From an uncultured bacterium (GTDB taxonomy: Bacteria > Bacteroidota > Ignavibacteria > Kapaibacteriales > UBA2268): a DNA stretch of 64,000 nucleotides. Below, in pieces: positions 2,207 through 61,586 of the stretch. The stretch covers positions 4,151,820 through 4,215,819 of the forward strand of contig OW818676.1 of assembly GCA_942493235.1 (NCBI GenBank), given 5' to 3'. The position numbers and the translations under genes were made by a program. Each line of letters starts with the position of its first letter. Position 1 is the stretch's first letter. Below the pieces are notes generated by a model that was given only the letters and a program-made list of their open reading frames with translations, had not been told where the DNA came from and searched no databases.

Positions 2207-5200
2207 ATGAGAATTTTATTAGTAGAAGACAACAAGATTTTAGCAAGTGTAACGCGTGAATATTTAAAATCTGCGGGATATGAAGTATTTTTAGCTGCGG
2301 ACTCTGTTGCATGCTTAAAACTTCTCAATGATGATGAATTTGACCTTATAGTTTTAGAAGTTGTCTTGCCGGACAGATCCGGAATAGATTTATGTAAAGA
2401 AATCAAATCTAAAGATAGTTTTCAAGACATACCTATTATATTTTTATCCTCTCTTACTAATAAAGATGCCTTAGTCGATGGATTAAATGCCGGGGGCAAA
2501 GACTTCATTACAAAGCCATTTAATAAAGAAGAGTTGCTGGCGAGAGTAAAAGTCAACATAGACCTAAAGTTGTCTAATGATTTAATAAAGAAGCAGAATG
2601 AATTGCTACGCAGGGAAATAGAATCAAGAAAGCAGGCAGAGCAAAGCCTAAAAATTTCCGAATCTGTATATCAGGCAGTTGTTGAAGACCAAATAGAAAT
2701 GATATGCAGAATTAAACCTGATGGAACTATAATATTTGTTAATAACGCATTCTGTAATTATTTCGAGTTCTCCAAGCAGGATATAATTAATAATAACCTA
2801 TTTGATATTTTGGTCGATGACGACAGAAAAATCAGATATAAAAATGTATTGCAATTGGGAAATTCAGAGACTCTTAATCATGAGGATTATTTCTATGATA
2901 AAGAAGGCAATATAAAATGGTACAACTGGAATTTAAGAGCTATACGTGATACTTCGGGTATGCTAAAAGAAATCCAAGGCGTAGGTGCCGATATTACCGA
3001 AAAGAAAAAAATCATCGAAGAGCTTAACGAGCTTAGCCTTTTCAATTATAGTATAATAGATAATGCGGGAGAAGGTATAGCGGTACTTGATAGAAATTTC
3101 AAATTTCAAACTTGGAATAAAGCCATGGAAATCATGAGCGAATTCCGTGCTGATGAAGTAATTGGAATTGACTGCCGAATCCTATTCCCTAATATAATAG
3201 AAAAATTCGGCAAAGATATTGATATTGCTTTTACCGGACAACAGGTTAAAACTACGGTTTATCAATTAACATTAACAAAATCTCAAGATAACTTGTGGGT
3301 TAGCGGAAATTTTGTACCGCATATAAATAAATATGGAGATATAATCGGCTTAATCGCGGTGTTTAGCAATCATACCGAAAAAGTTATTAAAGAAAATCAG
3401 CTTAAAGAAAGTCAAATCAGATTGGCAACTTTGATTGACTCTCTACCTTTTGATTTTTGGGCATTAGATAATGATTGGAATTATATATTACAAAACAAAT
3501 CCTGCATTGATAATTGGAAAGACGTAAAAGGTAGGAATTTTCACGAACTTGATGATTACGATGGATTAAAAGATATTTGGTATGCTAATAATCTAAAAGC
3601 TTTCTCCGGTATATCTGTTGAAGAGCATTATACTTTAAATAACGCAGGTAATGATTTACACAAGAAATCAGTTATTTCTCCGGTGATAATAGATGAAGAA
3701 ATTAAAGGTATTATCGGAACAGAAATCGATATAACCGAGATAATTAATTATCAAAATGCCCTTAAAGAATCCGAAAGTAAATATAGGCTTCTTTTTGATA
3801 ATATGCTAGATGCTTTTACTATTAATGAAATTATTTATAACAGCGAAGGTAAACCAATCGATTATATGGTTACCGAGTATAATAAATCATATCTGAAGCT
3901 GTCCGGATTTAGCGAGGAGCAAGTAAAATCGCTCAGCTCAAGTGAAAGGTCTAAAGAGCATTTTCATGAATTTTTTGATAAAATAGAATTTTCGTACCAT
4001 TCAGGGAAATCACAGAAATTTGAGTTTTACTCTGAATTGTACTGCAAGTATTTATCATTAAGTATTTATTTTCACTCTGATAATAAATTTGCTCTAATAT
4101 TTGATGATATTAGTGAAAGAAAAATCGCCGAAGTTAAGCTTAAAGAAAGCGAAGAACAGTTCAGGCAGCTGACTGAAAATATTGATGAAGTAATTTGGTT
4201 AAGAAATAAAGAATCAATACTCTATATCAGCAGCTCCTCGAAAAAATTATTTAATATAGACAGTAATGAACTAATTAGCAATACGAACCTATTTTATGAC
4301 TGCATTCATCATGAATACCTTGAGTTAGTAAAAAGTAAACTTTACGGTAAGGAATATTTAGAAGAAGGCAAGTTGAATATTGAATTCAAAGTTGTTATTG
4401 ATAACAAAGAAAAATGGTTCTGGTGCCGCTCATTCCCTATATTCGATGAAAATTCAAATTTAATTAAAATAGCCGGTATAGTAGAAGATATTACAGATAT
4501 TAAAGCAAGTGAAGAAATAATCAGAAAAGCTAATCTGGTAATAGAAAAAAGTAACACTGTAATAATTATTTGGGAAGACTTGCTGAATCTTAAACCGCAG
4601 TATATCTCGGAAAGTATTCGTCATTACGGTTATAATGCCAAAGACTTTATTGAAGGCACTTTAGATTTCGAATCAATTATTTATAAAGAAGATATTGAGA
4701 AAGTCAGAAATACAATTACGGAAAACCGACTTAATAGCAAAACGCATTATTCGATAGACTGTAGGCACCTTACTTTTAATAAAGAAATCAAATGGATGGA
4801 AATCAGAATCACTGATAAACAAACTTCCGGTACTACTTATTATAGCGAATCAATTTCAATTGACATCAGTGATAGAAAGAAAGCCGAAGAGAAGCTCTAT
4901 GACTCTGAAAACCGTTGGCAATTTGCTGTCGAAAGTTCCGGAGACGGGCTCTGGGAATGGGATGTCCACTCGGGTGAGTTCCTTATTAGTAATAATCTTC
5001 ATAGTATTATGGAGATGAATATTTATGAAAATATTTTTTCAATAAATGAATGGGAAACAAAAATTCATCCCGATGATTTAAGTGAATTTGCGACAAGTAT
5101 CGAGTATCATTTCAAAGGAGATTACCCACAAATCTACCTTGAGCACCGACTTAAATGTTCGACCGGCGTTTATAAATGGGTTCTGGACAGGGCAAAGATT

Positions 5201-8200
5201 TTAACTAAAGATTTAAATGGCGACCCGTTGAAAGTAATCGGCACTATTACTGATATTTCAAAAAGAAAAAACATAGAGATTAATCTTTTTGATACTTCGG
5301 AACGCTTAAAATTGGCAAAAAATGCCGCAAATATGGGTATTTTTGACTTAGATTGTAAAAATAATATTTTAATTTGGGATGAAGAGCTTTTTGAGATTTT
5401 CGGTGTTAAATCGTCGGATTATAAAAATGCAAGAGAAGCATTTGATACGTTAATCTATTCCGATGATGTTAAAATGATAGATGAAGCTACATCGTTACCT
5501 AATTTAACATCAAATAAAATCGAATTGGAATTTGGATATAGAAAAGGAAATAATCAGCACTGCATAATGAAGTCCATTTCTGACGTAATTTTTGATGAAT
5601 TTGGTGAACCATCGAGAATTATCGGTGTTAATTATGATATTACCGAATCTAAGAAAAGTGAAAAAGAAATTGTAGAGGTTCGTTCGCTTTTAGAAGCAAC
5701 TTTTGAACAGAATCCTGCTCCTATGGTTTTGGTTGAATATCCGAGCATGTTTGTAAGAATAGCAAATTCCGCATTTATTGATTTTTATAACATCGATAAA
5801 GAGATTATTCCTAATAAAATGTCAATCATAGAGCTTAGATCTTATTGGCAGGAATTTTTGCCAAACGGAGTAATGCTCTCTCCGTATCAGACTCCACTTA
5901 CCCAATCCCTTAAAGGAAATCGGATAAAAAATGAAGAATACTATATTAAATGTAAAGACGGATCTGTAAAATGGGAATTGGTCAATTCTGCCCCTATTTT
6001 CAATTCAGCAGGTGAGCTGATAGCAGCATTTGCGGTAGTTAATGATATTACTAATATTAAATCTGCTCAAGAAAAAATCAAACAAAGTGAAGATAAATTC
6101 AGGTTTATTACTGAAAATTTGATTGATGTAATTTGGCAAACCGATATAGATTTAAATTACACATATTTAAGTCCTTCTATTTCTAATTATTCAAATCAAT
6201 CTCCGAGCGATATGATTGGCAAAAGCATTTTAGAAAATATTTTACCCAAATATCATCAATTAATTATAGAAAAGCATAAAGAAAGTATTGTTAATATTGA
6301 AAATAAGAAACAGCCGGAATCAGATACCATTGAATGCGAAAGCTATTTACCAGATGAGACTTCAATCTGGAGTGAAATCACATATACCGCGTTAATTGAT
6401 TCCAACTTTGAGCTTATCGGATACCAAGGTATTACTCGCGATATAACAAAAAGGAAACTTACCGAATTAGCTGTGATTGAATCCGAAAAAAGATTTAGAA
6501 CCTTAATTACTTCGTCACCCGACTCTATTTTTATAACCGATTTGTCTGGACTAATTAAGTTTAGTTCCTTGGCAGGCTCAAATTTATTCGGTTATGACAC
6601 TAAGAGTTTTGCCGAGAAATCAATTACTAATTTACTTGATAAAACGGATGTTAATCATTTCAACTATTCAATTAATAAACTGATTGAAGGCAAATATCCT
6701 CAACCCGAGACATTTGTAGCACACAAGGCAGACGGCTCGAAAATATTTATTGAAATCAATTTTAGTTTATTGAAAAATTCAGCAGAGCTACCGGAAGAAA
6801 TTATATTCATTATCAGAGATATTACCGAGCGAAAAAAAATCGAGTTCCAATTGACAGAAGCTAAAAACAAAGCTGAAGAAGCCAACAGAACCAAATCTGA
6901 GTTTATTGCAAATATCAGCCATGAAATTCGCACACCACTTAATGCAATTATCGGATATGCCGATATTTTAAAAGCTAATATTGTCGAATATGAGCAAAAA
7001 GAATATATAAAAGGAATAGTAAGAGGCAGTAAAAACCTATTGGCAATTATTAATGATATTCTTGACCTTTCAAAAATTGATTCCGGGCATATTGAAATTA
7101 ATTATTCTCCCGTAAATATTAATTATATTATTAATGACATTAGGCAGATGTTTTCTCTGAAAAGTAAAGAGAAAAACCTCGAATTCATTTTTGAGACTAA
7201 TCCTGAATTACCTAAAATAATTCTTACCGATGAAGTTCGATTGAGGCAGATATTGATTAATTTAGTCGGCAATGCATTTAAATTTACTAATAAAGGATTT
7301 GTCAAGCTACAGGTCGATTTTGTCGCTTTTGAAGGCAGAATAGATTTGGTCTTTCATATTATTGACTCGGGAATTGGCATTCCACCAAGCCAGCAAAAAA
7401 TTATTTTTGAACCTTTTAGGCAGCAGCAGGGTCAGAGTACACGTAAATTCGCCGGCACTGGCTTAGGGCTAACTATCTCGGACAAATTAGCAAAATCTAT
7501 GAATGGGAATATTTTATTAGTAAGTTCTCAAGGCAAAGGAGCAAAATTTACTCTTGAACTTAAAAATGTAAAAATTCCTGAAAATTACGAATACAATAGA
7601 ATTACAGAATCTAATATTGATATATTCGATAATAAAAGGATAGTACTAATTTCATCAGATATTATTTTAAGCACTATCATTTCGGATTATTTTTATACTA
7701 CTAACTGTGCATTCGAGATTTTCACAGATTCTGAAAAAGCTAAGCTTGAAGCTAACAGAAATTTAGCTGATGCTATTATTATTGATTTTGATAATTTAAG
7801 CCAAATAGAAATAGATAATTTAGCTCACTTAGCTAAGACAGGTTTTTTAAAAGAGCAATGCCTATTGGCTATTAGTAAAGATAACAAGATTCCTGTCAAT
7901 TCGGATATTAATTTTAATGAAGTTTTTATCAAACCGGTCGATATTGGTTTGTTGTCTGATTCGTTAACTAATTATTTGAAATTTATCAATATAAATGTCG
8001 AATCGATGGATGACAAAATCGAGCAATTAATCGATTTAATTATTCTAAAAACAGATTTTAAAAAATTGGGACAGCTCTCTCCAAATATTTCATCGGAGTG
8101 GAGGAAAATCAAAAAACTAATGGATATTGATGAAATAAATCGATTTGCTGAAAGTCTTATACTGACATCAGAAAGCATGGCTAACACATATTTAAAAATA

Positions 8201-13946: not shown

Positions 13947-14022
13947 CATTCTGAACGAAGTGAAGAATCCAGATAAAGCTAACTTGTAGATAATTCTGGA
14001 TTCTTCGTTTCACTCAGAATGA
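13947..14022. repeat. Palindromic hairpin element, copy 1, between convergent kinase gene and groEL
   Basis: cattctgaacgaagtgaagaatccag / ctggattcttcgtttcactcagaatg arms pair over 26 positions with 2 mismatches, ~20-nt loop; near-identical copy at 16756-16829; T/A runs on both sides. Confidence 0.6.
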
Positions 14023-14075
14023 CGATTTAGAAACATTATTACTTTTTTGATAACCTCTAGGAAATTATATAATAA

Positions 14076-14133: not shown

Positions 14134-15789
<1,656 letters not shown>

Positions 15790-16654: not shown

Positions 16655-16715
16655 CGTTCTGCGTCGTGCGGCTGTTCTTCCAACATCGTTAGATGTTGAA
16701 TATTGGTAAAATGAA
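16655..16715. repeat. Dispersed intergenic repeat family 'ctgcgt(a/c)gtgcggct-ttctt-caaca(g/t)cgttagatgttgaatattggta' (copy D)
   Basis: Near-identical cores at 25205-25260, 61262-61300 and 16517-16550 (3' half); first-half relatives at 59155-59190 and 15912-15942. Confidence 0.55.
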
Positions 16716-16755: not shown

Positions 16756-16829
16756 ATTCTGAACGATTGAAGAATCCAGATAAAACTTACTTGCTGATAA
16801 TTCTGGATTCTTCGTTTCACTCAGAATAA
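16756..16829. repeat. Palindromic hairpin element, copy 2, downstream of the lytTR-type regulator gene, in the long groES upstream region
   Basis: gtcattctgaacgattgaagaatccaga ... tctggattcttcgtttcactcagaataac; same family as 13947-14022, including the flanking sequence cactcagaat(g/a)acgattt(a/g)g. Confidence 0.6.
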
Positions 16830-16900
16830 CGATTTGGCAATATTATTACTTATTAGGCAGCCTTAAAATAGAATTTTTTAATAGTAATTCGTAATTGAAT

Positions 16901-20007: not shown

Positions 20008-20160
20008 TACGCTGAAGCGTGAGGTTGAATGCCGCTGGGGTGAGCATTTGCGACAAATTAATTGAATTACACAGCCTCTTCAGCGTGGGGTTGAATGCCG
20101 CTGGGGTGGGCATTTGCGACAAATTAATTGAATTACACAGTCTCTGAAGCATTGGAATTG
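20008..20160. repeat. ~66-bp tandem repeat (about 2.3 units) containing the hairpin motif gctgaagcgtg(a/g)ggttgaatgccgctggggtg
   Basis: Units at ~20008-20076 and 20077-20142 are near-identical; a related single copy lies at 57371-57420 (ccccacgctgaagcgtggggttgaatggagtgggcg). Confidence 0.65.
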
Positions 20161-25108: not shown

Positions 25109-25282
25109 TTATTTATTTTTATATGTCTGTAGCAAAAGTCCATAATATTTATTTACTGTAAATTTTTCTAGGAATTTGCACGCCTCCTTACTATGCTATG
25201 CGTAGTGCGGCTTTTCTTACAACAGCGTTAGCTGTTGAATATTGGTAGCATAGATTTGGAACTCCCTTTCGTCTCCTTACTA

Positions 25283-26636
25283 TAAGGCTGTTGCACGGTA
25301 AATAATGGAGTAAGTACTTGTATTTTATATAAATTATGCGTATATTTGTGTACCTATAATGTACAATTCAGTAATTGAAATATGGATAAGAGTAAAAATA
25401 ATACAATGGCTGATTTTCTTTGTAAAGAAAGAGCTCGTAAACTTAAACATCAGTTTTTACAACAAGTAGATGCAATAATAGACTGGGAGCCTATTAATAA
25501 AGTAATTAATAGATACTACAAAAAAGTTGCAAGTGCGACAGGTCGTCCAGCTTATAGTGGACTGTTGTTATTCAAAATGAGTTTACTACAAACTTGGTAT
25601 GGAATGAGTGACTATGAAGCTGAAGAAAGAATAAATGATTCCTTGAGTTTTAGCTACTTTTGCGGATTATCAGTAGAAGAAGCATCTCCAGACCACAGCA
25701 CCTTGAGTCGCTTTCGCTCATTGTTGACAGAGCGTAGAGTATATGATAATCTCTTTACAGAAATAAACAGACAATTAGAAAAAAAGGGGATATTAGTCAA
25801 AAAGGGGATAATCGTAGATGCCAGTATAATAGATACACCTTACAAACCTCGCACGAAAGCCGGTTATGAGATAGAGCAGGATAGAAATGAAAGTCAACGC
25901 ACAGATGAAGAATTAAAAAAGGAAAATCAAGAAGTAAAGTATTTAGAAGTCCATCAGTCAAGCGTTGATACGCAAGCCAGATGGATAAAAAAAGGAGGTC
26001 GAGCAAGGTTCGGATATAAAAAGCACGTATTAACAAATCAAGATGGGTTAGTAATCGGAGCTTTGACAACTCCAGCCAATGTAAATGAAATAAGTAATTT
26101 AGCAGATGTATTACAAACTGCAAAATTTCCGGAGTATATCCCATTTTATGGAGACAAGGGTTATAATTCAGAAAAGAACAGTGAATTATTGAAAAGTAGA
26201 AACTTAATTAACCGAATATTGAAGAAAGCAAAAAAAAATAGACCACTAAAAGCAATAGAAAAGTTATTCAACAAGCTATGTGGCAAAACAAGATTTAAAG
26301 TTGAAAGAACATTCGGAAGTATGCGTAGTTGGTTTAAAAGTGAAAGAGCACGTTATCGGGGAATTGCCAAAACGCATAGTCAGATTATGATGGAATCGAT
26401 TGCGTATAACTTATACCGGAGTCCCGGGATAGTTATATCCAATGCGAAAAAAGGGTAATAAAACAGAAAGGAAAGACATATCTATGTACTGATTTTAGAT
26501 TGAAATATAGAAGGTAAACGCAAAATATGAAAATATTTAGCAAAATAACTTCACCAATATTAATAATATTTTAGAATGCAACCAGAATATTTACACTTAT
26601 CTACAAACCTACCCTTTTGCAACAGCCTTGAATTTA
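25283..26636 (+). mobile_element. IS5-family insertion sequence (boundaries approximate)
   Basis: Transposase ORF at 25382-26458 is flanked by inverted 12-13 bp aaggctgttgca (25286-25298) and tgcaacagcctt (26621-26633). Confidence 0.5.
25382..26458 (+). CDS. IS5-family DDE transposase
   Basis: N-terminal block LLFKMSLLQTWYGMSDYEAEERINDSLSFSYFCGL...PDHSTLSRFR is characteristic of IS5-family (IS1182/IS5 group) transposases. Confidence 0.85.
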   Translation: MDKSKNNTMADFLCKERARKLKHQFLQQVDAIIDWEPINKVINRYYKKVASATGRPAYSGLLLFKMSLLQTWYGMSDYEAEERINDSLSFSYFCGLSVEEASPDHSTLSRFRSLLTERRVYDNLFTEINRQLEKKGILVKKGIIVDASIIDTPYKPRTKAGYEIEQDRNESQRTDEELKKENQEVKYLEVHQSSVDTQARWIKKGGRARFGYKKHVLTNQDGLVIGALTTPANVNEISNLADVLQTAKFPEYIPFYGDKGYNSEKNSELLKSRNLINRILKKAKKNRPLKAIEKLFNKLCGKTRFKVERTFGSMRSWFKSERARYRGIAKTHSQIMMESIAYNLYRSPGIVISNAKKG

Positions 26637-26766
26637 AATCTGTATTAAGAAGTGTGAATAATATAACTTTTTTCGGAATTTATGTAACATTTAATCTGAA
26701 TAAAGTGCTTAACTTTAATTTATTTTTAAACACAAAAATTATGTTATCAATTAGAAAGGGAGAACA

Positions 26767-27231
26767 ATGAAAGGTAACACAAAGTTACTTGAAGTAATGA
26801 ATTCGCTATTGGCTGATGAACTTACTGTTATCAACCAATATATGGTACAATCTGAAATGTGTGCAAATTGGGGATATAGCAAACTCCACAAAGCTATCAG
26901 GAAACAGGCAATGGATGAAATGACACATGCCGAATGGCTTATCGAGCGAATCATTTTTTTCGAGGGCTCGCCAACGGTATCCAGTCTTAATCCGATGAAG
27001 ATTGGAAAAACTGTTTCGGAAATGATCAGTAATGACGATGAAACTGAACTTAATGTCGTCCGTGAATACAACGATGCAATCAAACTCGCCAGGGAGGTTG
27101 ATGATCAAGGCACTGTTGATCTGTTGACCAAAATACTTAAAATGGAAGAATGCCACGTTGATTGGGCAGAAATACAACGTGCTCAAATTGAGCAAATGGG
27201 CTTGGAGAACTATCTGAACAATCAAGTTTAA
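26767..27231 (+). CDS. bfr: Bacterioferritin
   Basis: MKGNTKLLEVMNSLLADELTVINQYMVQSEMCANWGY...MDEMTHAEWLIERI, 154 aa ferritin-like with Bfr-type heme Met. Confidence 0.9.
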   Translation: MKGNTKLLEVMNSLLADELTVINQYMVQSEMCANWGYSKLHKAIRKQAMDEMTHAEWLIERIIFFEGSPTVSSLNPMKIGKTVSEMISNDDETELNVVREYNDAIKLAREVDDQGTVDLLTKILKMEECHVDWAEIQRAQIEQMGLENYLNNQV

Positions 27232-27349
27232 ACAGGACAAATTAAATCATAGTCTTTTTTATGAAAATAATGCCCGGAAACTTTGCTTTAGGGTATTATT
27301 TTGAATTTAAAAATTAGTAATTAATTGTAATTTATTAAAGGATAATAAA

Positions 27350-28414
27350 ATGCCAAAATTAGCCGCTATATCGAAAATTGATTTTCCTTATCGGGTTGAT
27401 CAACAGGAAGTGAAGCAATATTCAAGGAATTTGTTTGCTCCTTCTTTTCCTCAAATAGATAGAATGATGAGTGCTTTTGACAATACCGAAATTAAAATCC
27501 GGAATTTTTGCAAACCTCTTGATTATTATGCCTCTGTCCATACTTTTCAGGAACAAAATGCCGAATACATCCGTCTCTCTCTTGAGTATTCCGTGAAAGC
27601 GATTGAAGCGTGTATTTCTTCTTCACAAATTAAAAAGGAAGAAATTACCGATATAATATTCATTTCTACTACGGGACTTTCTACCCCGAGCCTTGATGCA
27701 CTTATTATTAACAAAATGAGATTGAGCCGGAATATCGGTCGAATGGCGATTTTCGGGTTGGGTTGTGCCGGTGGTGTTTCCGGCTATTCAAAAGCGAACA
27801 TTCTGGCAAAAGAAAATCCAGATGCTATAGTATTGTTAGTAGCTGTAGAGTTATGTTCGTTGACTTTTCTGCGAAATGATTTCAGCAAAAGCAACTTCAT
27901 TGGGTCAAGTTTATTTGCCGATGGAGTTGCAGCCTGCATCATTACCGGAGATAATCATAGCAATAAAACAAAGAACAAAATATCCTTTCTTTCCACACAA
28001 AGTAAATTGTATTATGATACTCTCGATGTAATGGGTTGGGAATTTCTTAATACCGGATTTAAAGTTTTGTTTTCGCACGACATTCCAACCATAATATCAG
28101 AAAATATTCGTGAAGATATCACTTCATTTTTAAATAAACACCAATTGAAGATTTCCGACATCACGAATTTCATTTTTCATCCCGGAGGCAAGAAAATATT
28201 AACTGCATACGAAGAAGCGTTGCAAGTAGAAGGAGATTTCCTGAAAAATACAAGAGAGGTTATGAACGAAAATGGTAATATGTCCAGTACTACTGTTCTT
28301 TATGTATTGGAAAGATTCTTTACGCAAAATTATAAAAACGGTTACGGATTGATGGTCTCGATGGGTCCGGGTTTCTCGTGTGAAATGGTTTTACTGCAAA
28401 TGGATAAAGATTAA
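27350..28414 (+). CDS. Type III polyketide synthase (chalcone synthase-like; BpsA/RppA type)
   Basis: Catalytic Cys in GLGCAGGVSG, His in FHPGGKKIL and Asn in NGNMSSTTVL are all present at the expected spacing. Confidence 0.85.
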   Translation: MPKLAAISKIDFPYRVDQQEVKQYSRNLFAPSFPQIDRMMSAFDNTEIKIRNFCKPLDYYASVHTFQEQNAEYIRLSLEYSVKAIEACISSSQIKKEEITDIIFISTTGLSTPSLDALIINKMRLSRNIGRMAIFGLGCAGGVSGYSKANILAKENPDAIVLLVAVELCSLTFLRNDFSKSNFIGSSLFADGVAACIITGDNHSNKTKNKISFLSTQSKLYYDTLDVMGWEFLNTGFKVLFSHDIPTIISENIREDITSFLNKHQLKISDITNFIFHPGGKKILTAYEEALQVEGDFLKNTREVMNENGNMSSTTVLYVLERFFTQNYKNGYGLMVSMGPGFSCEMVLLQMDKD

Positions 28415-28915
28415 ATGATATTTATAATTTTCATATTGTTTGTTATTCTTTTTAGAATAGGCGAATTGCTCCATTCAAAAAGGAACGAGATTTGGTTAAT
28501 ACAAAATGGTGCAAAAGAGTATGGGCATGAGCATTATTTATTTATTGTCGCACTTCACGTTTCATTTTTTATAGCGATGATATCCGAATATTGCATACAA
28601 CAAACAGCATCATTTAGCCTATATTTTCTCATTTTATATTTTGTTCTTATAGCTTTTAAAATATGGATTGTATTATCATTAGGTAAATTCTGGAACACTA
28701 AAATTTATCACATTTCGGGGTTGCCTTTACAGAAAAAAGGATTATACAAGTACATTCAACATCCAAATTATATAGTTGTAGTTGCCGAAATAGCAATTAT
28801 TCCATTGGTATTTCATTTGTATTATACGGCAATTATTTTTTCGATACTGAATGCTATTATGTTGTTTGTAAGAATAACTACTGAAAATAAAGTTTTGAAA
28901 ATGGATCAACAATAG
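28415..28915 (+). CDS. Isoprenylcysteine carboxyl methyltransferase (ICMT)-family membrane methyltransferase (BpsB-like)
   Basis: 166 aa, 4-5 TM helices; C-terminal YIQHPNY...AE motif typical of the ICMT/PEMT family; start overlaps the PKS stop (TAAATG). Confidence 0.7.
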   Translation: MIFIIFILFVILFRIGELLHSKRNEIWLIQNGAKEYGHEHYLFIVALHVSFFIAMISEYCIQQTASFSLYFLILYFVLIAFKIWIVLSLGKFWNTKIYHISGLPLQKKGLYKYIQHPNYIVVVAEIAIIPLVFHLYYTAIIFSILNAIMLFVRITTENKVLKMDQQ

Positions 28916-29038
28916 TAATAATAAAAACAGTTTAAGGATTAAATCAATGGAAATATTACGAGTCACCACCAAAAATTGGGGATTATGCAAAAAGTTTGGA
29001 GAGCCTAAAGAGAAAGAACTTGTTGTCAATAACCCCTC

Positions 29039-29362
29039 TTAAGTTAGCTCTAAATAGCTTAATTTTAGCATTAAATGATTCAGCATTGGCATTAGTACTA
29101 CGGTTAAGAAGTTCAGTATATTCTCAAAGTTGTGTTTTAAAGTGTTTGTAGCGGTATTAAACTCTTTAATATTCAGCATTTCTGTATTTATAAACCATTG
29201 CTTCATTTTAGTCTCAGCGTGATATCTGCTTTGGTTTTCATATATATTTCTAAACTCTAAAATGTGGTTATAAGCTTTTTCTATGACAGGGTATCGTTTG
29301 AACAAAATATTAGCTCTCTGGGATTGAGATAAAGTCCATTGATATGGCTTTTTATAAAGCAA
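29039..29362 (-). pseudogene. Remnant of an ISL3-family transposase (C-terminal region only)
   Basis: ...ILFKRYPVIEKAYNHILEFRNIYE...NIKEFNTATNTLKHNFENILNF matches the conserved spacing of the ISL3 transposase C-terminal region; no N-terminal part is present. Confidence 0.45.
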
Positions 29363-29520
29363 TAATCTACAACAGCTAACGCTGTTCTAAGAAAGATTTC
29401 TTTATTTGCTTACCCACACATAATAGCGAATGACCATTTTTTTACACTAAAAACAGCAAAGAATTTTTTTAATTTCCTGCTTATAGTAATATGAAGAAAT
29501 TAAAGAACTTTAAAACAGAT

Positions 29521-29898
29521 TTATACTTTCACATTTTTAGAGATGTAATAACCGACAAATACTAAAGCTATTCCCAGTATATTACTAATAGCAATATTTG
29601 CTCCGGCTTTAACATATTCTTCGGCTTTCAAATACTGAAGAGTTTCAAGTGAAAATGTAGAGAATGTAGTAAAGCAACCAAGAAACCCGGTAGTAGCAAA
29701 GCCTTTATATTTATCAGGCAAATCGAAGGTTTCCATAACACCCCAAATCAATCCAATCAAAAATGAACCGATTAGATTAATAACAATTGTTCCATATTTA
29801 AAATCATGAGAAATCATGGAATTAATAAACCCTGCAAGAAAGAATCTGCTCAGCACTCCGAGCACCCCACCGATAACAATATATAATAAATTTTGCAT
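29521..29898 (-). CDS. crcB: Fluoride ion channel CrcB/FluC
   Basis: 125 aa, four TM helices, GTIVINLIGSFLIG and GFLGCFTTFSTFS motifs. Confidence 0.85.
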   Translation of the reverse strand: MQNLLYIVIGGVLGVLSRFFLAGFINSMISHDFKYGTIVINLIGSFLIGLIWGVMETFDLPDKYKGFATTGFLGCFTTFSTFSLETLQYLKAEEYVKAGANIAISNILGIALVFVGYYISKNVKV

Positions 29899-41147: not shown

Positions 41148-44100
41148 CTATTTATTCTTCTCCGCTTTTAAAATAAATTCGGCTTTAATTACCTTTTTAC
41201 TCGTTTTGCTGATTTTATATTTATTACTTAATCGCTTACCGACTACCCAAATTATTTCCGACTTTGTAGTTAGAAGTATTATATTTTGCTTCTCCATAAT
41301 CGGAACCTTAATATTGCTTAAGAAATCGCTTACTTTAACATGCCCCTCCATACCAAGTGGCTGGAAAATATCTCCGGTCTCCCAACTACGCAATTGCAAA
41401 TATGAAGGAATTAGTTCGGCATCTATATACTCAATATTTGTATCTTTATTGAAGTCAGCAGTTTTCCGCTGTACTTCGGTTAATCTTAAAATATGCGTAC
41501 CGAGGTCATATTCGCCGGTTCGCTCTATTTGCATATCAACTTTAAAAGTAGAACTTTTAATTGAAAATACAAGATGATTTCTATCTTTAAGTACAAAAGC
41601 ATTTTTATTTATGTCGCATATTGAGCCACTCGGTGATTCGCAGAGCGACAGAATTCTATCGATAGTATTTGATGTTATTGGTAATGATTTAAATACCTTA
41701 ACTACTGATTGCTGTATTATCTCACTTTGGATAAATTCGGTAAAAGTCTGCAATTGCGGAATATTAATATAATATCTGTCTTTTCTTCTGTCTTTAATCA
41801 GAATTTGAAGCAATCCATTAACGTAAGTATTAATAAAATCATCAGCTCCACGTAAAATGGCAGCAGTCTTATTAATAGTTTCTATAATTGCTGGAGAGAA
41901 ATCCTCTTTTAATTTCGGCAATAGGTCTAATCTTATTTTATTTCGAGTATAATTGGTAAGAGCGTTTGTCTCGTCTTCTCTCCAAGCTAATTTTCTTTCT
42001 TTTGCATATTCATATATATCAGATTTCTTAATATTGATGATAGGTCTGATCAAGTGCGAATTTTTAGTAAGTATTCGCTTTTTTGGAATTCCGGTTAATC
42101 CGGTAAGACCTGTACCACGCATCAGATTAAGTAAAAATGTTTCGGCACTATCGTCAGAAGTATGAGCGGTAGCCACAAAATTAATCTTTAAATTGCCGGC
42201 TAATCTCTCGAACATTTTATAACGTCGCACTCTGGCAGCTTGCTCAATAGAAATTGAATTTGCCGAAGCATAAGCCATAATGTTTTCTGAATTAGTATAG
42301 ACCTTTAATGCGTATTTCTCTGATATTTTGCGAACTAATTCTTCATCTTCATCAGAAGACAATCCCCTAAGATTATGATTAAAATGAGCCACAATTAGCG
42401 TAAATTTATATTTTTCGGATAGCTGGGCAAACATATCAAGTAACGAAATTGAGTCAACTCCCCCGCTTACAGCAACCATTATTCTTGCTCCTTCAGCAAC
42501 AAATAATTCTTCAGTTAGGGAATATTCAAATTTTTTGAGTAAAGCCTCAACAGTTGGATTGCTTGGTTTATCAGGATTAATAAGCATTTTTGACGAAATT
42601 TTAGAATATACCAAATCATCATTCGGATTTTTCTTTAGCTTTTTAATTGGCTCCGGAGCTACTTCAAAAGTAGTTTTGATATAATTGGGGTCCATTACCA
42701 ACGGATCAATTATTTCATCAGGGTCGTCAAGTTCAATCTTTTCATTAGTGTATTTATGCTTATTCTGGAATTTTGTATTCTTATGTTTATTTCTATTATC
42801 AGACTTTTCTTTGACTTCTTTCTCTACCGCTACGACTTTCTCAATCGAAACCTCTTCAATTGGCTTATCGGCTTCGGAGCTAATCTCGTCTAATTGGACA
42901 GTTCCGGATTTTAATAATTGCTCTGCTTCTAAAGCAGCTTTCTCTGCTTTAAGCTTTTTGGCAAATTTCTTCCGTCTGTTATTTCTCTGTGAAGCCGTTT
43001 CTTTTTTATATTCTTCATTAGTAACGACTTCGCTTATAGTTTCATTAGGTAATACAATCGCATCTGATGCTAAATCAAGAATTTTAGCAGTTGTATTTTC
43101 CTTTTTATGCTTGTTAATATTTTTAGAAAAAGGCAACCTGATTATTTCATTTTTTTCTTCAATAATAGGTTCTTTAACTTCTCTTTCAGAAATATTTTCA
43201 TTAACAGAAACTGATTCAATCGGCTTATTTTGCTGTTTATTTTGATTCTTTTTACTAAAAGGTAATCTTATCGTTTTTGAACTAATAATTGTTAATATAG
43301 GCTCTACTTCAGATTTACTACTTTCTCCTCTTTTATCTTCTGCCTTATTAGTTTCAGCGTTTGGAAAATCAGTGGCATTGCTATTTCTGTTTTTCTGCCA
43401 ATTATTATTTTGGGAATTATTACTACGGAAATTATTATTACGAGAATTATTATTTTGGGAATTATTACTACGAAAACTATTATTTTTTTGTTGTGGTTTT
43501 AACCTTTGACTCTCAGCATTTGAATTCTCTATTATCTCTGAACTTACTCTTTCAGTACTTAATTTCTCAGTATTAATTTTTGATTCCACTCGTTGAGTGT
43601 TTGCAGTTCTATCATTAGAATTTTGCTTTGATTCCACTCGTTGAGTATTTACAGTTCTATCATTAGGATTTTGCTTTGATTCCACTCGTTGAGTGTTTGC
43701 AGTTCTATCATTAGGATTTTGCTTTGATTCCACTCGTTGAGTGTTTACAGTTTTTTCATTAGGATTTTGCTTTGGTTCCACTCGTTGAGTATTTACAGTT
43801 CTATCATTAGGATTTTTATCATTCAGATTCTGTTTTGATTCCACTCGTTGAGTATTTACAGTTCTATCATTAGAATTTTGCTTTGGTTCCACTCGTTGAG
43901 TGTTTACAGTTCTATCATTAGGATTTCTATCATTCAGATTCTGCTTTGATTCAGCTCTTTGAGTGTTTACAGTTCTATCATTTGAATTTCTATCATTCAG
44001 ATTCTGCTTTGATTCAGCTCTTTGAGTGTTTACAGTTCTATCATTAGGATTTCTATCATTCAGATTTTGCTTTGGTTCAGCTCTTTGAGTATTTACAGTT

Positions 44101-45341
44101 CTATCATTAGGATTCTGCTTTGATTCAGCTCTTTGAGTATTTACAGTTCTATCATTAGGATTCTGCTTTGGTTCCACTCTTTGAGTGTTTGAATTTACTT
44201 TTGTTAGAGGTTCTTGATTATTTAAAGATTGTCCATCTATAGTACTTTTTTCAAATGTATCTGATTTAACTTGACTTTGACTATTGGGCTGAATCAAATT
44301 TTTATTTCTGTTCAGAGGAGAATGTCTTTTCTGATTAACAATAGTAACAATAGCCGGTAAATTATTTTCTTTTTTATCGGATAGAGTTTTATTCGTCGGA
44401 GCTGATGATAATTTATCTTTTTCTGAAGGGATAATACTTTCCGCATTCACTTTTTTGGAGCTTGTTTGGGCTTTATCATCAAATAATGCATTGTTGTCAT
44501 TATTTGAATATTTAGGTTTATTCCTAAAACTATTCCTATTTTGAAAATCTTTAGTAGGATTAGATTCATCAGAATTTAAAGTAGGAGCATTATCACGAGT
44601 ATTTGCTTTTTGCTCTACACTTTGCTTTGAATAATGATGAGTATGCTTTGGCTTTTGCTCTACAGCAGGCTTTGCAAAATTCTCCTGTTGACTTGCTTTT
44701 TGCTCTACAGTCTGTTTTGAATAATTCGGAAGTTTGGACTTTTGCTCTACAGCAGGCTTTGCAAAATTCTCTTGTTGATTTGCTTTTTGCTCTACACTTT
44801 GCTTTGAATAATGATGAGTATGCTTTGGCTTTTGCTCTACAGCAGGCTTTGCAAAATTCTCTTGTTGACTTGCTTTTTGCTCAACAGTCTGTTTTGAATA
44901 ATTCGTTTGCTTTTGCTCTACGGCAACTTTTGCAAAATTTTCCTGTTGACTTGCTTTTTGCTCATCGGTTTGTTTGGAATAATTATTCTGATGTTTAGGC
45001 TTATGATCTAAAATCGGTCTTGAATAATTGCTTGAGCGATTATCCTTGCTATAGCCTTGTTTTGAGCCTTCATCACTTGCAGAATGCTTGCTATCAGAGC
45101 GGTATTTGCTCTTATAATTGGAATTGCTTCTATAATCATCATTATAGCCGGTATTTGGCTGATAATTTGGTTTTACTCCCCGAACTTGTTCAGGATTAAC
45201 AATTAATCTATCATCTGTCGAAAGCTTAATATCTCTAAGCAGAGGTTTTTTCTTAATATATCCGCCGCTTTTACTATCTGATTTTTCTTTATTAGCGGAA
45301 TAATTATGAATCTTATTATTTTCTGTATTTGTTTTTGCCAT
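41148..45341 (-). CDS. tilS: tRNA(Ile)-lysidine synthetase with ~900-aa N-terminal low-complexity repeat extension (single open frame)
   Basis: C-terminal ~480 aa has the PP-loop ARIMVAVSGGVDSISLL and full TilS-like length; upstream ~900 aa is N/Q/K/S-rich tandem repeats (NTQRVESKQNPNDRTV x~12; KQTVEQKASQQENFAKPAVEQKPKHTHHYS x~4) with no in-frame stop. Confidence 0.65.
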   Translation of the reverse strand: MAKTNTENNKIHNYSANKEKSDSKSGGYIKKKPLLRDIKLSTDDRLIVNPEQVRGVKPNYQPNTGYNDDYRSNSNYKSKYRSDSKHSASDEGSKQGYSKDNRSSNYSRPILDHKPKHQNNYSKQTDEQKASQQENFAKVAVEQKQTNYSKQTVEQKASQQENFAKPAVEQKPKHTHHYSKQSVEQKANQQENFAKPAVEQKSKLPNYSKQTVEQKASQQENFAKPAVEQKPKHTHHYSKQSVEQKANTRDNAPTLNSDESNPTKDFQNRNSFRNKPKYSNNDNNALFDDKAQTSSKKVNAESIIPSEKDKLSSAPTNKTLSDKKENNLPAIVTIVNQKRHSPLNRNKNLIQPNSQSQVKSDTFEKSTIDGQSLNNQEPLTKVNSNTQRVEPKQNPNDRTVNTQRAESKQNPNDRTVNTQRAEPKQNLNDRNPNDRTVNTQRAESKQNLNDRNSNDRTVNTQRAESKQNLNDRNPNDRTVNTQRVEPKQNSNDRTVNTQRVESKQNLNDKNPNDRTVNTQRVEPKQNPNEKTVNTQRVESKQNPNDRTANTQRVESKQNPNDRTVNTQRVESKQNSNDRTANTQRVESKINTEKLSTERVSSEIIENSNAESQRLKPQQKNNSFRSNNSQNNNSRNNNFRSNNSQNNNWQKNRNSNATDFPNAETNKAEDKRGESSKSEVEPILTIISSKTIRLPFSKKNQNKQQNKPIESVSVNENISEREVKEPIIEEKNEIIRLPFSKNINKHKKENTTAKILDLASDAIVLPNETISEVVTNEEYKKETASQRNNRRKKFAKKLKAEKAALEAEQLLKSGTVQLDEISSEADKPIEEVSIEKVVAVEKEVKEKSDNRNKHKNTKFQNKHKYTNEKIELDDPDEIIDPLVMDPNYIKTTFEVAPEPIKKLKKNPNDDLVYSKISSKMLINPDKPSNPTVEALLKKFEYSLTEELFVAEGARIMVAVSGGVDSISLLDMFAQLSEKYKFTLIVAHFNHNLRGLSSDEDEELVRKISEKYALKVYTNSENIMAYASANSISIEQAARVRRYKMFERLAGNLKINFVATAHTSDDSAETFLLNLMRGTGLTGLTGIPKKRILTKNSHLIRPIINIKKSDIYEYAKERKLAWREDETNALTNYTRNKIRLDLLPKLKEDFSPAIIETINKTAAILRGADDFINTYVNGLLQILIKDRRKDRYYINIPQLQTFTEFIQSEIIQQSVVKVFKSLPITSNTIDRILSLCESPSGSICDINKNAFVLKDRNHLVFSIKSSTFKVDMQIERTGEYDLGTHILRLTEVQRKTADFNKDTNIEYIDAELIPSYLQLRSWETGDIFQPLGMEGHVKVSDFLSNIKVPIMEKQNIILLTTKSEIIWVVGKRLSNKYKISKTSKKVIKAEFILKAEKNK
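43580..44200. repeat. Coding tandem repeat, 48-bp unit (some 63 bp), about 12 copies
   Basis: gattccactcgttgagtgtttacagttctatcattaggattttgcttt iterated; encodes the 16-aa unit NTQRVESKQNPNDRTV on the minus strand. Confidence 0.8.
44600..44990. repeat. Coding tandem repeat, ~90-bp unit, about 4 copies
   Basis: gctttttgctctaca(c/g)t(t/c)tg(c/t)tttgaataa...ttttgctctacagcaggctttgcaaaattctc(c/t)tgttgactt iterated. Confidence 0.75.
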
Positions 45342-61212: not shown

Positions 61213-61586
61213 TCCGGAACTTCCGTTGGATAGTGGCGTTTGTAAAATCTGTTCTTTCCTTCCAACAGCGTTAGATGTTGAACATTGGTAACATAGACTT
61301 GTCCTTGCTCATTTTCTTGGTGGGAGCAGAGTCAAGACTAATGTTTTTACACATTTAAAACAACGAAGAGCCATGCTCTATTTCAATTTGTTAATGGTAT
61401 TTCAGCAAAATTAATTATGATTTTTGATAGGAGATATATTCTGTTCACGTTTATTATTTTTAGTTAAATAGCTATCATAGATTTCTGCTATACTCTTTAA
61501 TCTGTAATCCCATAGTTTCGATTGTTTTTTAACGAAAAAAAAAGTATATTGTATCTGTTATTTTGGACTCTGTGAAAATATACATT

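Follow-up and report, generated by a model that had tools for sequence, protein, structure and literature searches.

A type III polyketide synthase and ICMT-family methyltransferase gene pair behind bacterioferritin and a conserved promoter-like element in an uncultured bacterium

The window analysed here, the whole 64-kb stretch of DNA, carries two adjacent plus-strand genes, one for a type III polyketide synthase (PKS; 27350..28414) and an ICMT-family methyltransferase gene (28415..28915), which by sequence comparison form a predicted phenolic-lipid operon of the BpsA/BpsB type, and one that appears as an old, strongly conserved and ordinary unit in bacteria of the Bacteroidota/Ignavibacteriota group. 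The cassette is no discovery, being a textbook pair that automated pipelines already name as such. The new finding is a 41-nt element upstream of the neighbouring bacterioferritin gene, bfr, which is a candidate promoter or operator of a stress regulon. The explanation that best joins these observations, and which we judge probable, is a BpsA/BpsB-type operon that is a native unit, has a stress-linked element upstream of bfr, and has been trimmed at its flanks by insertion sequences.

The PKS, of the alkylpyrone/alkylresorcinol-synthase type, is 354 aa long and in Pfam is a single-domain protein without a carrier domain, matching Chal_sti_synt_C with 71 bits and Chal_sti_synt_N with 68.4 bits (cut-off 27). 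The residues Cys139 (in GLGCAGG), His277 (in FHPGG) and Asn310 (in GNMSS) align with C138, H277 and N310 of Pks11, the first of which is the residue mutated in 4jat, and this triad is unchanged in all 81 of 81 PKS orthologues; the earlier identification of a type III PKS with an intact Cys-His-Asn triad is thus upheld by both the domain scores and the alignment. Pks11 (4jao) is also the top PDB match (194 bits, E = 2.8e-56; 308 aligned columns, about 33% of them identical), followed by CylI with 128 bits, and all 60 of the 60 PDB matches listed are type III PKSs. The match to THNS (1u0m) scores 126 bits against 194 for Pks11, and the DpgA equivalog model gives 162 bits, well under its cut-off of 425. 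There are 6776 homologues at E <= 1e-10, the best 120 of which are all at least 79% identical, and many of the orthologues are annotated by JGI as 'alkylresorcinol/alkylpyrone synthase'.

A grouping with FabH had been named beforehand as an outcome that would overturn this assignment. If the gene were FabH (KAS III) of fatty-acid synthesis, with an unrelated membrane protein encoded downstream, the low-scoring secondary hits on ACP_syn_III_C (34 bits) and two NCBIfam FabH models (52.6 and 49.2 bits) would be accounted for, but matches of this strength are expected in any thiolase-fold condensing enzyme. The FabH models remain far below their cut-offs of 292.1 and 249 bits, the type III PKS domains score double (68-71 bits, with ACP_syn_III_C reaching about half of this), every PDB match listed is a type III PKS, and the downstream protein matches Pfam ICMT with E = 6e-23. 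The Pfam, NCBIfam and PDB searches together refute a FabH identity, and we give this reading next to no credence. The PKS gene is accordingly classed from its sequence as a type III PKS distinct from FabH and, since Pks11 is its closest solved relative, the BpsA/BpsB-like reading stands as a prediction.

The downstream gene encodes a predicted polytopic membrane methyltransferase of 166 aa, which is BpsB/DquB-like. Pfam ICMT (PF04140) scores 81.5 bits (cut-off 24), all of the homologues listed carry PF04140, and there are about five hydrophobic segments, with Kyte-Doolittle stretches at residues 1-22, 39-62, 61-93 and 117-157. Both this family assignment and the proposed HMM check, in which Chal_sti_synt_N, Chal_sti_synt_C and ICMT all exceed their Pfam cut-offs, agree with the preliminary description. 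The Methanosarcina ICMT structure 4a2n can be aligned with the protein (E = 1.4e-4 by sequence, 2.9e-4 by profile), and the profile-to-PDB search yielded nothing beyond 4a2n. Two motif patterns, GxYKxIxHPxY and RxxxExxxL, are shared between them, with GLYKYIQHPNY and RITTENKVL in the window corresponding to GIYKNIRHPMY and RVPKEEELL in 4a2n. Residues H116, P117, Y119, R153 and E157 are unchanged in 30 homologues, and the C-terminal motifs are presumably those that bind SAM in the 4a2n structure. An AlphaFold2 model built from a 30-sequence alignment is poor (mean pLDDT 54, pTM 0.44), and is all-helical at low confidence. The equivalog model for protein-S-isoprenylcysteine O-methyltransferase (NF040696) scores 21.5 bits, far under its cut-off of 160, and an orthologue of the prenylcysteine methyltransferases is therefore ruled out; the protein is a predicted member of the family, for which the PKS product is the more likely substrate.

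The two genes are as tightly joined as was first described, and both the ORF coordinates and the TAAATG junction are exact: in the sequence ...GAT TAA ATG... the PKS stop codon (28412-28414) abuts the start codon of the ICMT-family gene (28415-28417). In 80 of 81 related loci the latter lies directly 3' of the PKS gene in the same orientation, the median gap being 8 nt, and PKS and ICMT are the only universal genes of these loci. The PKS is 64-91% identical in the relatives, which span more than 80 species genomes of Bacteroidota and Ignavibacteriota; cultivable carriers include Rurimicrobium arvi, Sunxiuqinia indica, Mucilaginibacter and a Paludibacter isolate. A PKS gene paired with an ICMT-like methyltransferase gene is the published architecture of both BpsA/BpsB and DquA/DquB (PMC9827899), and the likeness drawn earlier to the two-gene bpsA-bpsB layout is sound. 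By the same comparison, the view that such a cassette is not expected in this genomic context has to be given up, both for the conservation of the pair and because T3PKS is reported to rank second in frequency among the antiSMASH cluster types of Flavobacteriaceae (PMC7440613). Literature searches found no biochemically characterised enzyme from the Bacteroidota/Ignavibacteriota clade, so that the characterised systems are the source from which starter length, the choice between a pyrone and a resorcinol ring, and the methyl acceptor are extrapolated. This is a very large and unusually conserved clade to be apparently lacking a biochemically characterised member, and the comparative data touch on the question of what type III PKS lipids do in bacteria beyond the cyst and spore formers.

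The conserved promoter-like element (GTGTGAATAATATAACTTTTTTCGGAATTTATGTAACATTT) occupies 26652..26692 on the plus strand, 75 nt ahead of the start codon of bfr. It was first seen as a 38-nt blastn match; a k-mer search that covered 160 nt upstream of every PKS gene returned just A/T-rich words. Its pattern is GTGTGAATnATGTAAC-N15-TGTAACA, with direct TGTAAC repeats 21 nt apart. The 64-kb window contains a single significant copy (45-49 bits, against a maximum of 11.6 over 10 shuffles), and related loci totalling 1.08 Mb hold 96 sites that reach 14 bits or more, where the shuffle maximum is 13.0. Sites of 46-49 bits also occur in loci that were left out of matrix building, and an ORF usually starts 46-84 nt downstream. 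At promoter distance the element precedes the PKS gene in 11 loci and a bfr-PKS arrangement in another 11 (the window included), and at the threshold used it was not detected upstream of PKS in 49 of 79 loci. In the relatives it also heads genes for SOD, Usp, CsbD, YtxH, Dps-like, YceI, cupin, AHSA1 and nitroreductase proteins. From its position before bfr-PKS, before PKS and before stress genes we infer membership of the operon in a general-stress regulon, which the sequence comparisons suggest. In locus L035 a strong site is followed by an AraC-like gene, which was considered as the regulator and rejected, being present in only four loci and absent from the window. Literature searches revealed no report of the motif or of a general-stress regulon in Bacteroidota. 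Through the element the operon is connected with genes of iron storage, ROS detoxification and general stress, which provides a testable handle on the role of the lipid.

The gene behind the element is bacterioferritin (26767..27231, plus strand; TIGR00754, 148 bits, cut-off 125.55), as had been recognised, although it is no arbitrary flank: 13 loci have it directly upstream of PKS in the same orientation, with 72-86% identity. A bacterioferritin, ferritin, catalase or SOD gene is found within 5 kb in 20 of 82 loci, and in L006, L088, L046, L021 and L057 the pair sits inside co-directional strings of SOD, ferritin, catalase and reductase genes. The RNA fold of the bfr-PKS spacer (27232-27349) shows an AU-rich hairpin followed by a U-run (27264..27302, plus strand), with a 12-bp stem (AAAAUAAUGCCC...GGGUAUUAUUUU) that includes 3 G-C pairs, and similar palindromes are visible in the spacers of L014, L059, L024 and L046. 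The fold z-score of the entire 118-nt spacer is only -1.1. A terminator scan of the plus strand found none, and sigma-70-type promoter and terminator scans are uninformative in DNA as A/T-rich as this. The hairpin is possibly a weak terminator or attenuator.

The conserved block extends from 26652 to 28953 and is bounded by insertion sequences on both sides. To the left is an intact IS5-family element (25284..26629, plus strand; transposase ORF 25382..26458), whose transposase matches NF033581 (249 bits, cut-off 140) as well as DDE_Tnp_1 and DUF772, and whose 12-nt terminal inverted repeat (AAGGCTGTTGCA / TGCAACAGCCTT), at 25284-25295 and 26618-26629, is perfect. It ends 23 nt before the block, and homology with Paludibacter locus L024 is present only from 26652 onward. 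At the right boundary, nucleotide homology with the closest relative, L006, stops at 28953, just before an ISL3/ISAon1-family transposase fragment (29039..29362, minus strand). The fragment covers profile positions 200-286 of 327 in NF049917 (76 bits, cut-off 250) and 120-205 of 240 in DDE_Tnp_ISL3 (45.7 bits), and is thus the middle part of a transposase and not a full-length one; crcB (29521..29898) fills the space expected for the N-terminal 200 codons. An inverted copy of a REP-like hairpin repeat (29370..29387, minus strand) lies at the truncated end of the fragment, and its core, CAACAGCGTTAGCTGTTG, is present in four copies in the window (16681, 25220, 29370 inverted and 61263) with none expected by chance. 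The transposase fragment and dispersed repeat reported downstream are therefore both present. The repeats were considered as IS ends of a mobile unit and discarded; the similarity extends for only about 30-50 nt and the copies are at unrelated intergenic sites. We also note that the bfr-PKS-ICMT site lies between an MBL-fold gene and crcB, and that Rfam at the gathering threshold gave no match in the whole window, including no fluoride riboswitch before crcB.

A plausible scenario for the chemistry, drawn from membership of the two families, is that the PKS would load a long-chain fatty-acyl thioester from the fatty-acid pool onto Cys139, extend the chain by two or three malonyl-CoA units, and cyclise it to an alkylpyrone and/or alkylresorcinol. 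The ICMT-family enzyme would then O-methylate a ring hydroxyl with S-adenosylmethionine, and the resulting methyl ether would remain in the membrane. In this genome the pair is most likely transcribed jointly with bfr or via read-through from it, from a start at the promoter that the conserved 41-nt element would mark, such that the lipid may be made within a general or oxidative stress response. IS activity would have trimmed the block on both sides and left it intact.

This scenario can be weighed against others at each of its steps. The element could govern bfr only, with PKS-ICMT separately regulated and the stress-gene neighbourhood coincidental; the hairpin and U-run in the 118-nt spacer could terminate transcription, palindromes are seen in the relatives too, and in 49 of 79 loci there is no detectable element upstream of PKS. 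However, in 11 loci without bfr the element lies 46-93 nt directly before the PKS start, the bfr-linked loci have no second element between bfr and PKS, and in L011 bfr stops just 20 nt ahead of the PKS start. The hairpin itself is AU-rich with few G-C pairs in a spacer whose fold is not significant, and we regard separate regulation as rather unlikely. A different history is also conceivable, in which the flanking IS elements brought the cassette in by recent horizontal transfer, either with bfr or without it. IS sequence is present on both sides and homology with the relatives ends exactly there, loci with a PKS 90% identical to that of the window still differ in their outer context, and no gene of the window exceeds bfr in GC3 (0.40). 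By GroEL, the named relatives of the window belong to Kapabacteria/Ignavibacteriota, yet its PKS nests in a Bacteroidales/Marinilabiliales clade, apart in the tree from well-assembled Ignavibacteriales copies. Against this, the two IS are of different families and one is a fragment, and hence they do not make a composite transposon; GC3 of the PKS gene (0.34) and ICMT-family gene (0.26) and their codon distance fall within the spread of the window (mean 0.30 +/- 0.04); and the order element-bfr-PKS-ICMT is common to about a dozen genomes without these IS. The MAG labels behind the tree incongruence are moreover unreliable, with one contig labelled Hyphomicrobiales. Recent transfer is in our estimation improbable. 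The preliminary description had offered acquisition or rearrangement, and it is the second that survives: the IS5 element and the ISL3/ISAon1 fragment at the limits of the block support local rearrangement of its flanks, whereas recent acquisition is not supported by the native composition. An older horizontal history is conceivable.

Returning to the native, stress-linked operon, the nature of its end product can be read in another way, as a redox-active methoxy-alkylquinone or quinol that acts as an electron carrier or radical scavenger and not as an inert membrane lipid. This would resemble what has been proposed for type III PKS operons of mycobacteria and Streptomyces, and respiratory electron transport is among the published roles of type III PKS lipids (PMC9827899). 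The neighbours include oxidative-stress genes, and an FNR-type FAD/NAD(P) reductase gene adjoins the pair in at least 12 loci, being directly upstream in L086. Only PKS and ICMT are universal in the related loci, however, and the window has neither a hydroxylase nor a reductase gene adjoining the pair. In L057 and L088 the reductase accompanies SOD and may belong with it and not with the PKS, and a quinone product seems to us a poor prospect. For the preferred methylated membrane lipid, a broader proposal is that PKS-ICMT is a dedicated effector of a Bacteroidota/Ignavibacteriota general or oxidative stress regulon, defined by the GTGTGAATnATGTAAC-N15-TGTAACA element and read by a sigma factor or AraC-type activator, and is co-expressed with bacterioferritin, SOD, catalase, Usp, CsbD, YtxH, Dps and YceI, with the lipid serving as a membrane antioxidant or stabiliser in mostly oxygen-sensitive bacteria. 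We offer this tentatively, as a possibility that may well prove wrong. If true, it would explain how an enzyme usually regarded as one of 'secondary metabolism' keeps 64-91% identity from one class to another, would amount to a general-stress regulon in a phylum for which we found none described, and would place phenolic lipids within it.

Among known systems, Streptomyces griseus SrsABC and Azotobacter vinelandii ArsABCD make phenolic lipids by type III PKSs, with roles in the envelope or membrane and with ties to stress or dormancy, through antibiotic resistance in one and cyst formation in the other. Both are larger, SrsABC by a hydroxylase gene and ArsABCD by type I FAS-like genes for starters, and these extra genes are absent from the window. 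The Methanosarcina acetivorans ICMT (4a2n), the only solved relative of the window methyltransferase, is of similar size and multi-pass with the C-terminal motifs GxYKxIRHPxY and RVxxEExxL, although the similarity is weak (E of about 1e-4). Mycobacterium tuberculosis Pks11 (4jao), an alpha-pyrone synthase that starts from long-chain acyl groups (PMC9827899), has the same triad numbering as the window PKS except at the cysteine (C138 and C139), but shares only about one third identity with it, and residues 1-44 of the window PKS are outside the best-scoring aligned stretch. The DquA/DquB locus of Dendrosporobacter quercicolus (Sporomusaceae, Negativicutes) is likewise a PKS plus ICMT-like locus in anaerobes with the triad kept, and DquA, like the window PKS, has Pks11 as its best structural template. 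The products of DquA have been demonstrated experimentally, whereas those of the window clade are predicted, and the authors of the DquA work suggest a physiological and not an antibiotic role, linked to the resistant state of sporulation (PMC9827899). DquAB follows sporulating lineages, in contrast to the window-type pair, which is found with oxidative and general stress genes in non-sporulating FCB bacteria. Closest in gene arrangement is Bacillus subtilis BpsA/BpsB, where the gene directly after that of the type III PKS encodes a small membrane methyltransferase of ICMT-like type; BpsA produces alkylpyrones and alkylresorcinols with long chains, whose free hydroxyls BpsB methylates (PMC9827899). 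The window pair differs in coming from the FCB group and not from the Firmicutes and, relative to bpsAB as described there, in its linkage to bacterioferritin and to a stress-type promoter element.

The gene at 27350-28414 (+) encodes a 354-residue type III polyketide synthase (PKS). Both Pfam chalcone synthase domains score above the cut-off of 27 bits (Chal_sti_synt_N, 68.4 bits; Chal_sti_synt_C, 71 bits), and the top PDB match among those listed is the M. tuberculosis alkylpyrone synthase Pks11 (4jao; E = 2.8e-56, 194 bits), followed by CylI, THNS and Steely1. Residues Cys139, His277 and Asn310 align with Cys138, His277 and Asn310 of Pks11, where Cys138 is the residue substituted in the mutant structure 4jat, and the Cys-His-Asn triad is unchanged in 81 of 81 orthologues. 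Identity as a FabH is ruled out, since the NCBIfam FabH models give scores of only about 50 bits where 249-292 are required and all 60 PDB matches listed are type III PKSs; the DpgA equivalog also falls far under its cut-off (162 versus 425 bits).

The PKS termination codon (TAA, 28412-28414) is followed at once by the ATG (28415-28417) of a second gene (28415-28915, +), and the TAAATG junction reported in the preliminary description is thus exact at base resolution. The 166-residue product matches Pfam ICMT (81.5 bits, cut-off 24) and has about five hydrophobic segments, as expected of a polytopic membrane methyltransferase of this family. The only solved ICMT that it matches is Methanosarcina 4a2n (E = 1.4e-4 by sequence, 2.9e-4 with a 30-sequence profile), with which it shares two C-terminal motifs (GLYKYIQHPNY/GIYKNIRHPMY and RITTENKVL/RVPKEEELL, window and 4a2n respectively); H116, P117, Y119, R153 and E157 are unchanged across 30 homologues. 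NF040696 scores 21.5 bits against a cut-off of 160. Judged by its sequence the protein is not an orthologue of the protein prenylcysteine methyltransferases, in keeping with a small-molecule substrate. Its AlphaFold2 model (pLDDT 54) is too uncertain for use.

There are 6776 PKS homologues with E <= 1e-10, the best 120 of which are all at least 79% identical, and where the source gives a name it is 'alkylresorcinol/alkylpyrone synthase'. A scan of species-representative genomes recovered 80 loci at 64-91% identity in Marinilabiliales, Paludibacter, Prolixibacteraceae, Chitinophagaceae, Mucilaginibacter, Flavobacterium and Ignavibacteriota, with isolates including Rurimicrobium arvi, Sunxiuqinia indica and Flavipsychrobacter stenotrophus. 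When every ORF lying up to 5 kb from the PKS was clustered without bias, only two families proved universal, the PKS itself (81/81) and the ICMT family (80/81); the ICMT gene invariably follows the PKS in the same orientation, at a median distance of 8 nt. This obligate pairing in a fixed order therefore defines a conserved functional unit. The BpsA/BpsB-type reading proposed previously is correct in its core, the cassette itself being already named by pipelines, but the view that it is not expected in this context is untenable, because T3PKS is reported to be the second commonest antiSMASH cluster type in the Flavobacteriaceae (PMC7440613) and the pair is so widely conserved.

The bacterioferritin gene bfr (26767-27231, +; TIGR00754, 148 bits, cut-off 125.55) does lie upstream as described, but it is not an arbitrary flank, since in 13 loci a bfr gene (72-86% identity) directly precedes the PKS in the same orientation. 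Other recurrent neighbours, with identities confirmed with Pfam, are an alpha/beta-hydrolase (12-13 loci), an FNR-type reductase (10), catalase (5), ferritin (5) and Fe/Mn-SOD (4), together with Usp genes in Paludibacter; bfr, ferritin, catalase or SOD lies within 5 kb of the PKS in 20 of 82 loci. The closest relatives give the clearest picture. L006 (91% PKS identity) carries SOD-ferritin-catalase-orf138-PKS-ICMT-hydrolase in one direction throughout, L088 (90%) has rubrerythrin-like-SOD-reductase-hydrolase-PKS-ICMT-hydrolase-DUF6496, and L086 (90%) has orf100-reductase-PKS-ICMT-TPP enzyme. We note that the catalases beside the pair in L006 (5758-7239) and L046 (5585-7072) are 93% identical, on contigs labelled Breznakibacter and Paludibacter respectively, which suggests that the stress-gene neighbourhood may have been exchanged between lineages.

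A 41-nt element came to light through a blastn match of 38 nt that pairs window 26652-26689, ahead of bfr, with L006 4391-4428, ahead of SOD. It has the consensus GTGTGAATnATGTAAcTttTTtcaaaAaTTnTGTAAcAcTt (about 41 bits of information) and the form GTGTGAATnATGTAAC-N15-TGTAACA, in which direct TGTAAC repeats lie 21 nt apart. In 1.08 Mb of related loci, 96 sites score 14 bits or more against the weight matrix; the highest score in one shuffled version of that sequence is 13.0 bits. The element, present in many FCB-group loci, points to the downstream gene, whose start codon usually lies 46-84 nt beyond it; the distance is 58-75 nt for bfr and mostly 46-68 nt for the PKS. Such an arrangement has the geometry of a promoter. 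Genes downstream of it include bfr (12), PKS (11), SOD, Usp and hydrolases, as well as CsbD, YtxH, Dps-like, YceI, DUF326, cupin, AHSA1/SRPBCC, nitroreductase and Nramp genes, a set that resembles a general-stress regulon. The 64-kb window has exactly one site, which scores 45-49 bits against a null maximum of 11.6 and occupies 26652-26692, 75 nt ahead of the bfr ATG; the element is therefore no generic promoter. Sites elsewhere include L006 4391-4431, L024 (Paludibacter) 7319-7359 and 4418-4458, L014 13766-13806, L086 8828-8868 and L088 3125-3165, and L033 has six.

Among 79 loci with enough upstream sequence, the element stands directly before the PKS in 11, before a bfr immediately preceding the PKS in another 11, the window among them, and farther upstream, ahead of co-directional genes, in six. 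In 49, mostly of more divergent clades, there is none upstream of the PKS at the scan threshold, a low-threshold rescan adding five loci; three loci outside the matrix set have 46-49-bit sites heading PKS-containing gene strings. The weight-matrix scan found no second site between bfr and PKS in the 11 bfr-PKS loci. In the window the two genes are probably co-transcribed, although an AU-rich hairpin with a U-run (27264-27302) in their 118-nt spacer may attenuate read-through. AraC dimers bind direct repeats spaced about 21 bp, and a 181-residue AraC-type regulator directly behind a 53-bit copy (L035 550-1092) is for this reason a weak candidate for the factor reading the element; its homologues are in L015, L019 (two copies) and L031, and it recurs in only four loci.

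The conserved block is bounded by mobile DNA. An intact IS5-family element (25284-26629; 358-residue transposase, 249 bits, cut-off 140) is delimited by a perfect 12-nt terminal inverted repeat (25284-25295 and 26618-26629) and so stops 23 nt before the 41-nt element; its insertion could alter expression of bfr, PKS and ICMT. Homology to L006 stops at 28953, and next lies the transposase ORF described earlier (29039-29362, -), a fragment that covers positions 200-286 alone of an ISL3/ISAon1 profile 327 positions long; in relatives this place is taken by a hydrolase or other stress genes. The dispersed repeat is also real, its hairpin core CAACAGCGTTAGCTGTTG occurring four times in the window (16681-16698, 25220-25237, 29370-29387 inverted, and 61263-61280) with none expected by chance; the short span of similarity between copies, only about 30-50 nt, makes it a small intergenic repeat of REP-like type. 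Two copies, inverted to each other, bracket the segment from IS5 to the ISL3 remnant, and that at 61263 follows a second DDE transposase ORF (59475-61154, 559 aa, DDE_Tnp_1).

Other repeats include a 96-nt repeat (86% identity; 13961-14056 and 16768-16863) that flanks the GroEL region and holds a GAAGAATCCAGA...TCTGGATTCTTC palindrome, an intergenic 66-nt tandem duplication (20016-20147, 92% identity) upstream of a BatD-domain gene, and three tandem paralogous ORFs of 136-147 aa (243-1860, -; repeats D3, D4, D5 and D9, 76-95% identity). A 1397-residue ORF (41148-45341, -) probably encodes a repetitive protein that is secreted or at the cell surface; at 43400-45031 it holds extended arrays of degenerate tandem repeats of 15, 45, 48 and 63 nt (families D1, D2 and D7). 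Rfam at the gathering threshold identifies no fluoride riboswitch upstream of crcB (fluoride channel; 29521-29898, -), to about 30010.

Acquisition or rearrangement had been proposed from these flanks. Trimming of the block 26652-28953 by IS activity on both sides supports rearrangement, but recent acquisition finds no support in GC3 (PKS 0.34, ICMT gene 0.26; window mean 0.30 +/- 0.04) or in the unremarkable codon-usage distances, and the genes around the block belong to an ordinary backbone (GroEL, a LytTR two-component system, BatD, deaminase, RsmI-like methylase, RadA, T9SS cargo). An older horizontal history is possible. GroEL (14134-15789) has named relatives in Kapabacteria/Ignavibacteriota (82-85% identity), and the PKS nests in a Bacteroidales/Marinilabiliales clade apart from well-assembled Ignavibacteriales copies, is 91% identical to a copy on a contig binned as Breznakibacter, and has variable outer gene context among loci 90% identical to it. 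The incongruence could reflect either horizontal exchange of stress genes or mis-binned MAG contigs, the MAG labels behind it being unreliable.

The pair is thus unusually strongly conserved, and a literature search found no biochemical study of any Bacteroidota or Ignavibacteriota member of the clade, a characterised member in this phylum group being apparently lacking. The promoter-like element of stress type is apparently undescribed, a literature search having found no account of it, and makes the physiological role of the pair testable. A plausible scenario from comparative genomics is that the PKS is expressed from the element-marked promoter, together with bfr or by read-through from it, within a response to general or oxidative stress. 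By analogy with BpsA/BpsB, DquA and Pks11, the PKS would take a long-chain acyl starter and add two or three malonyl-CoA extensions, the ring closing to a pyrone and/or resorcinol, which the ICMT-family enzyme would O-methylate in the membrane using SAM. The characterised BpsA/BpsB and DquA/DquB systems have the same architecture of paired PKS and methyltransferase genes; their PKSs produce long-chain alkylpyrones or alkylresorcinols, which BpsB then methylates (PMC9827899).
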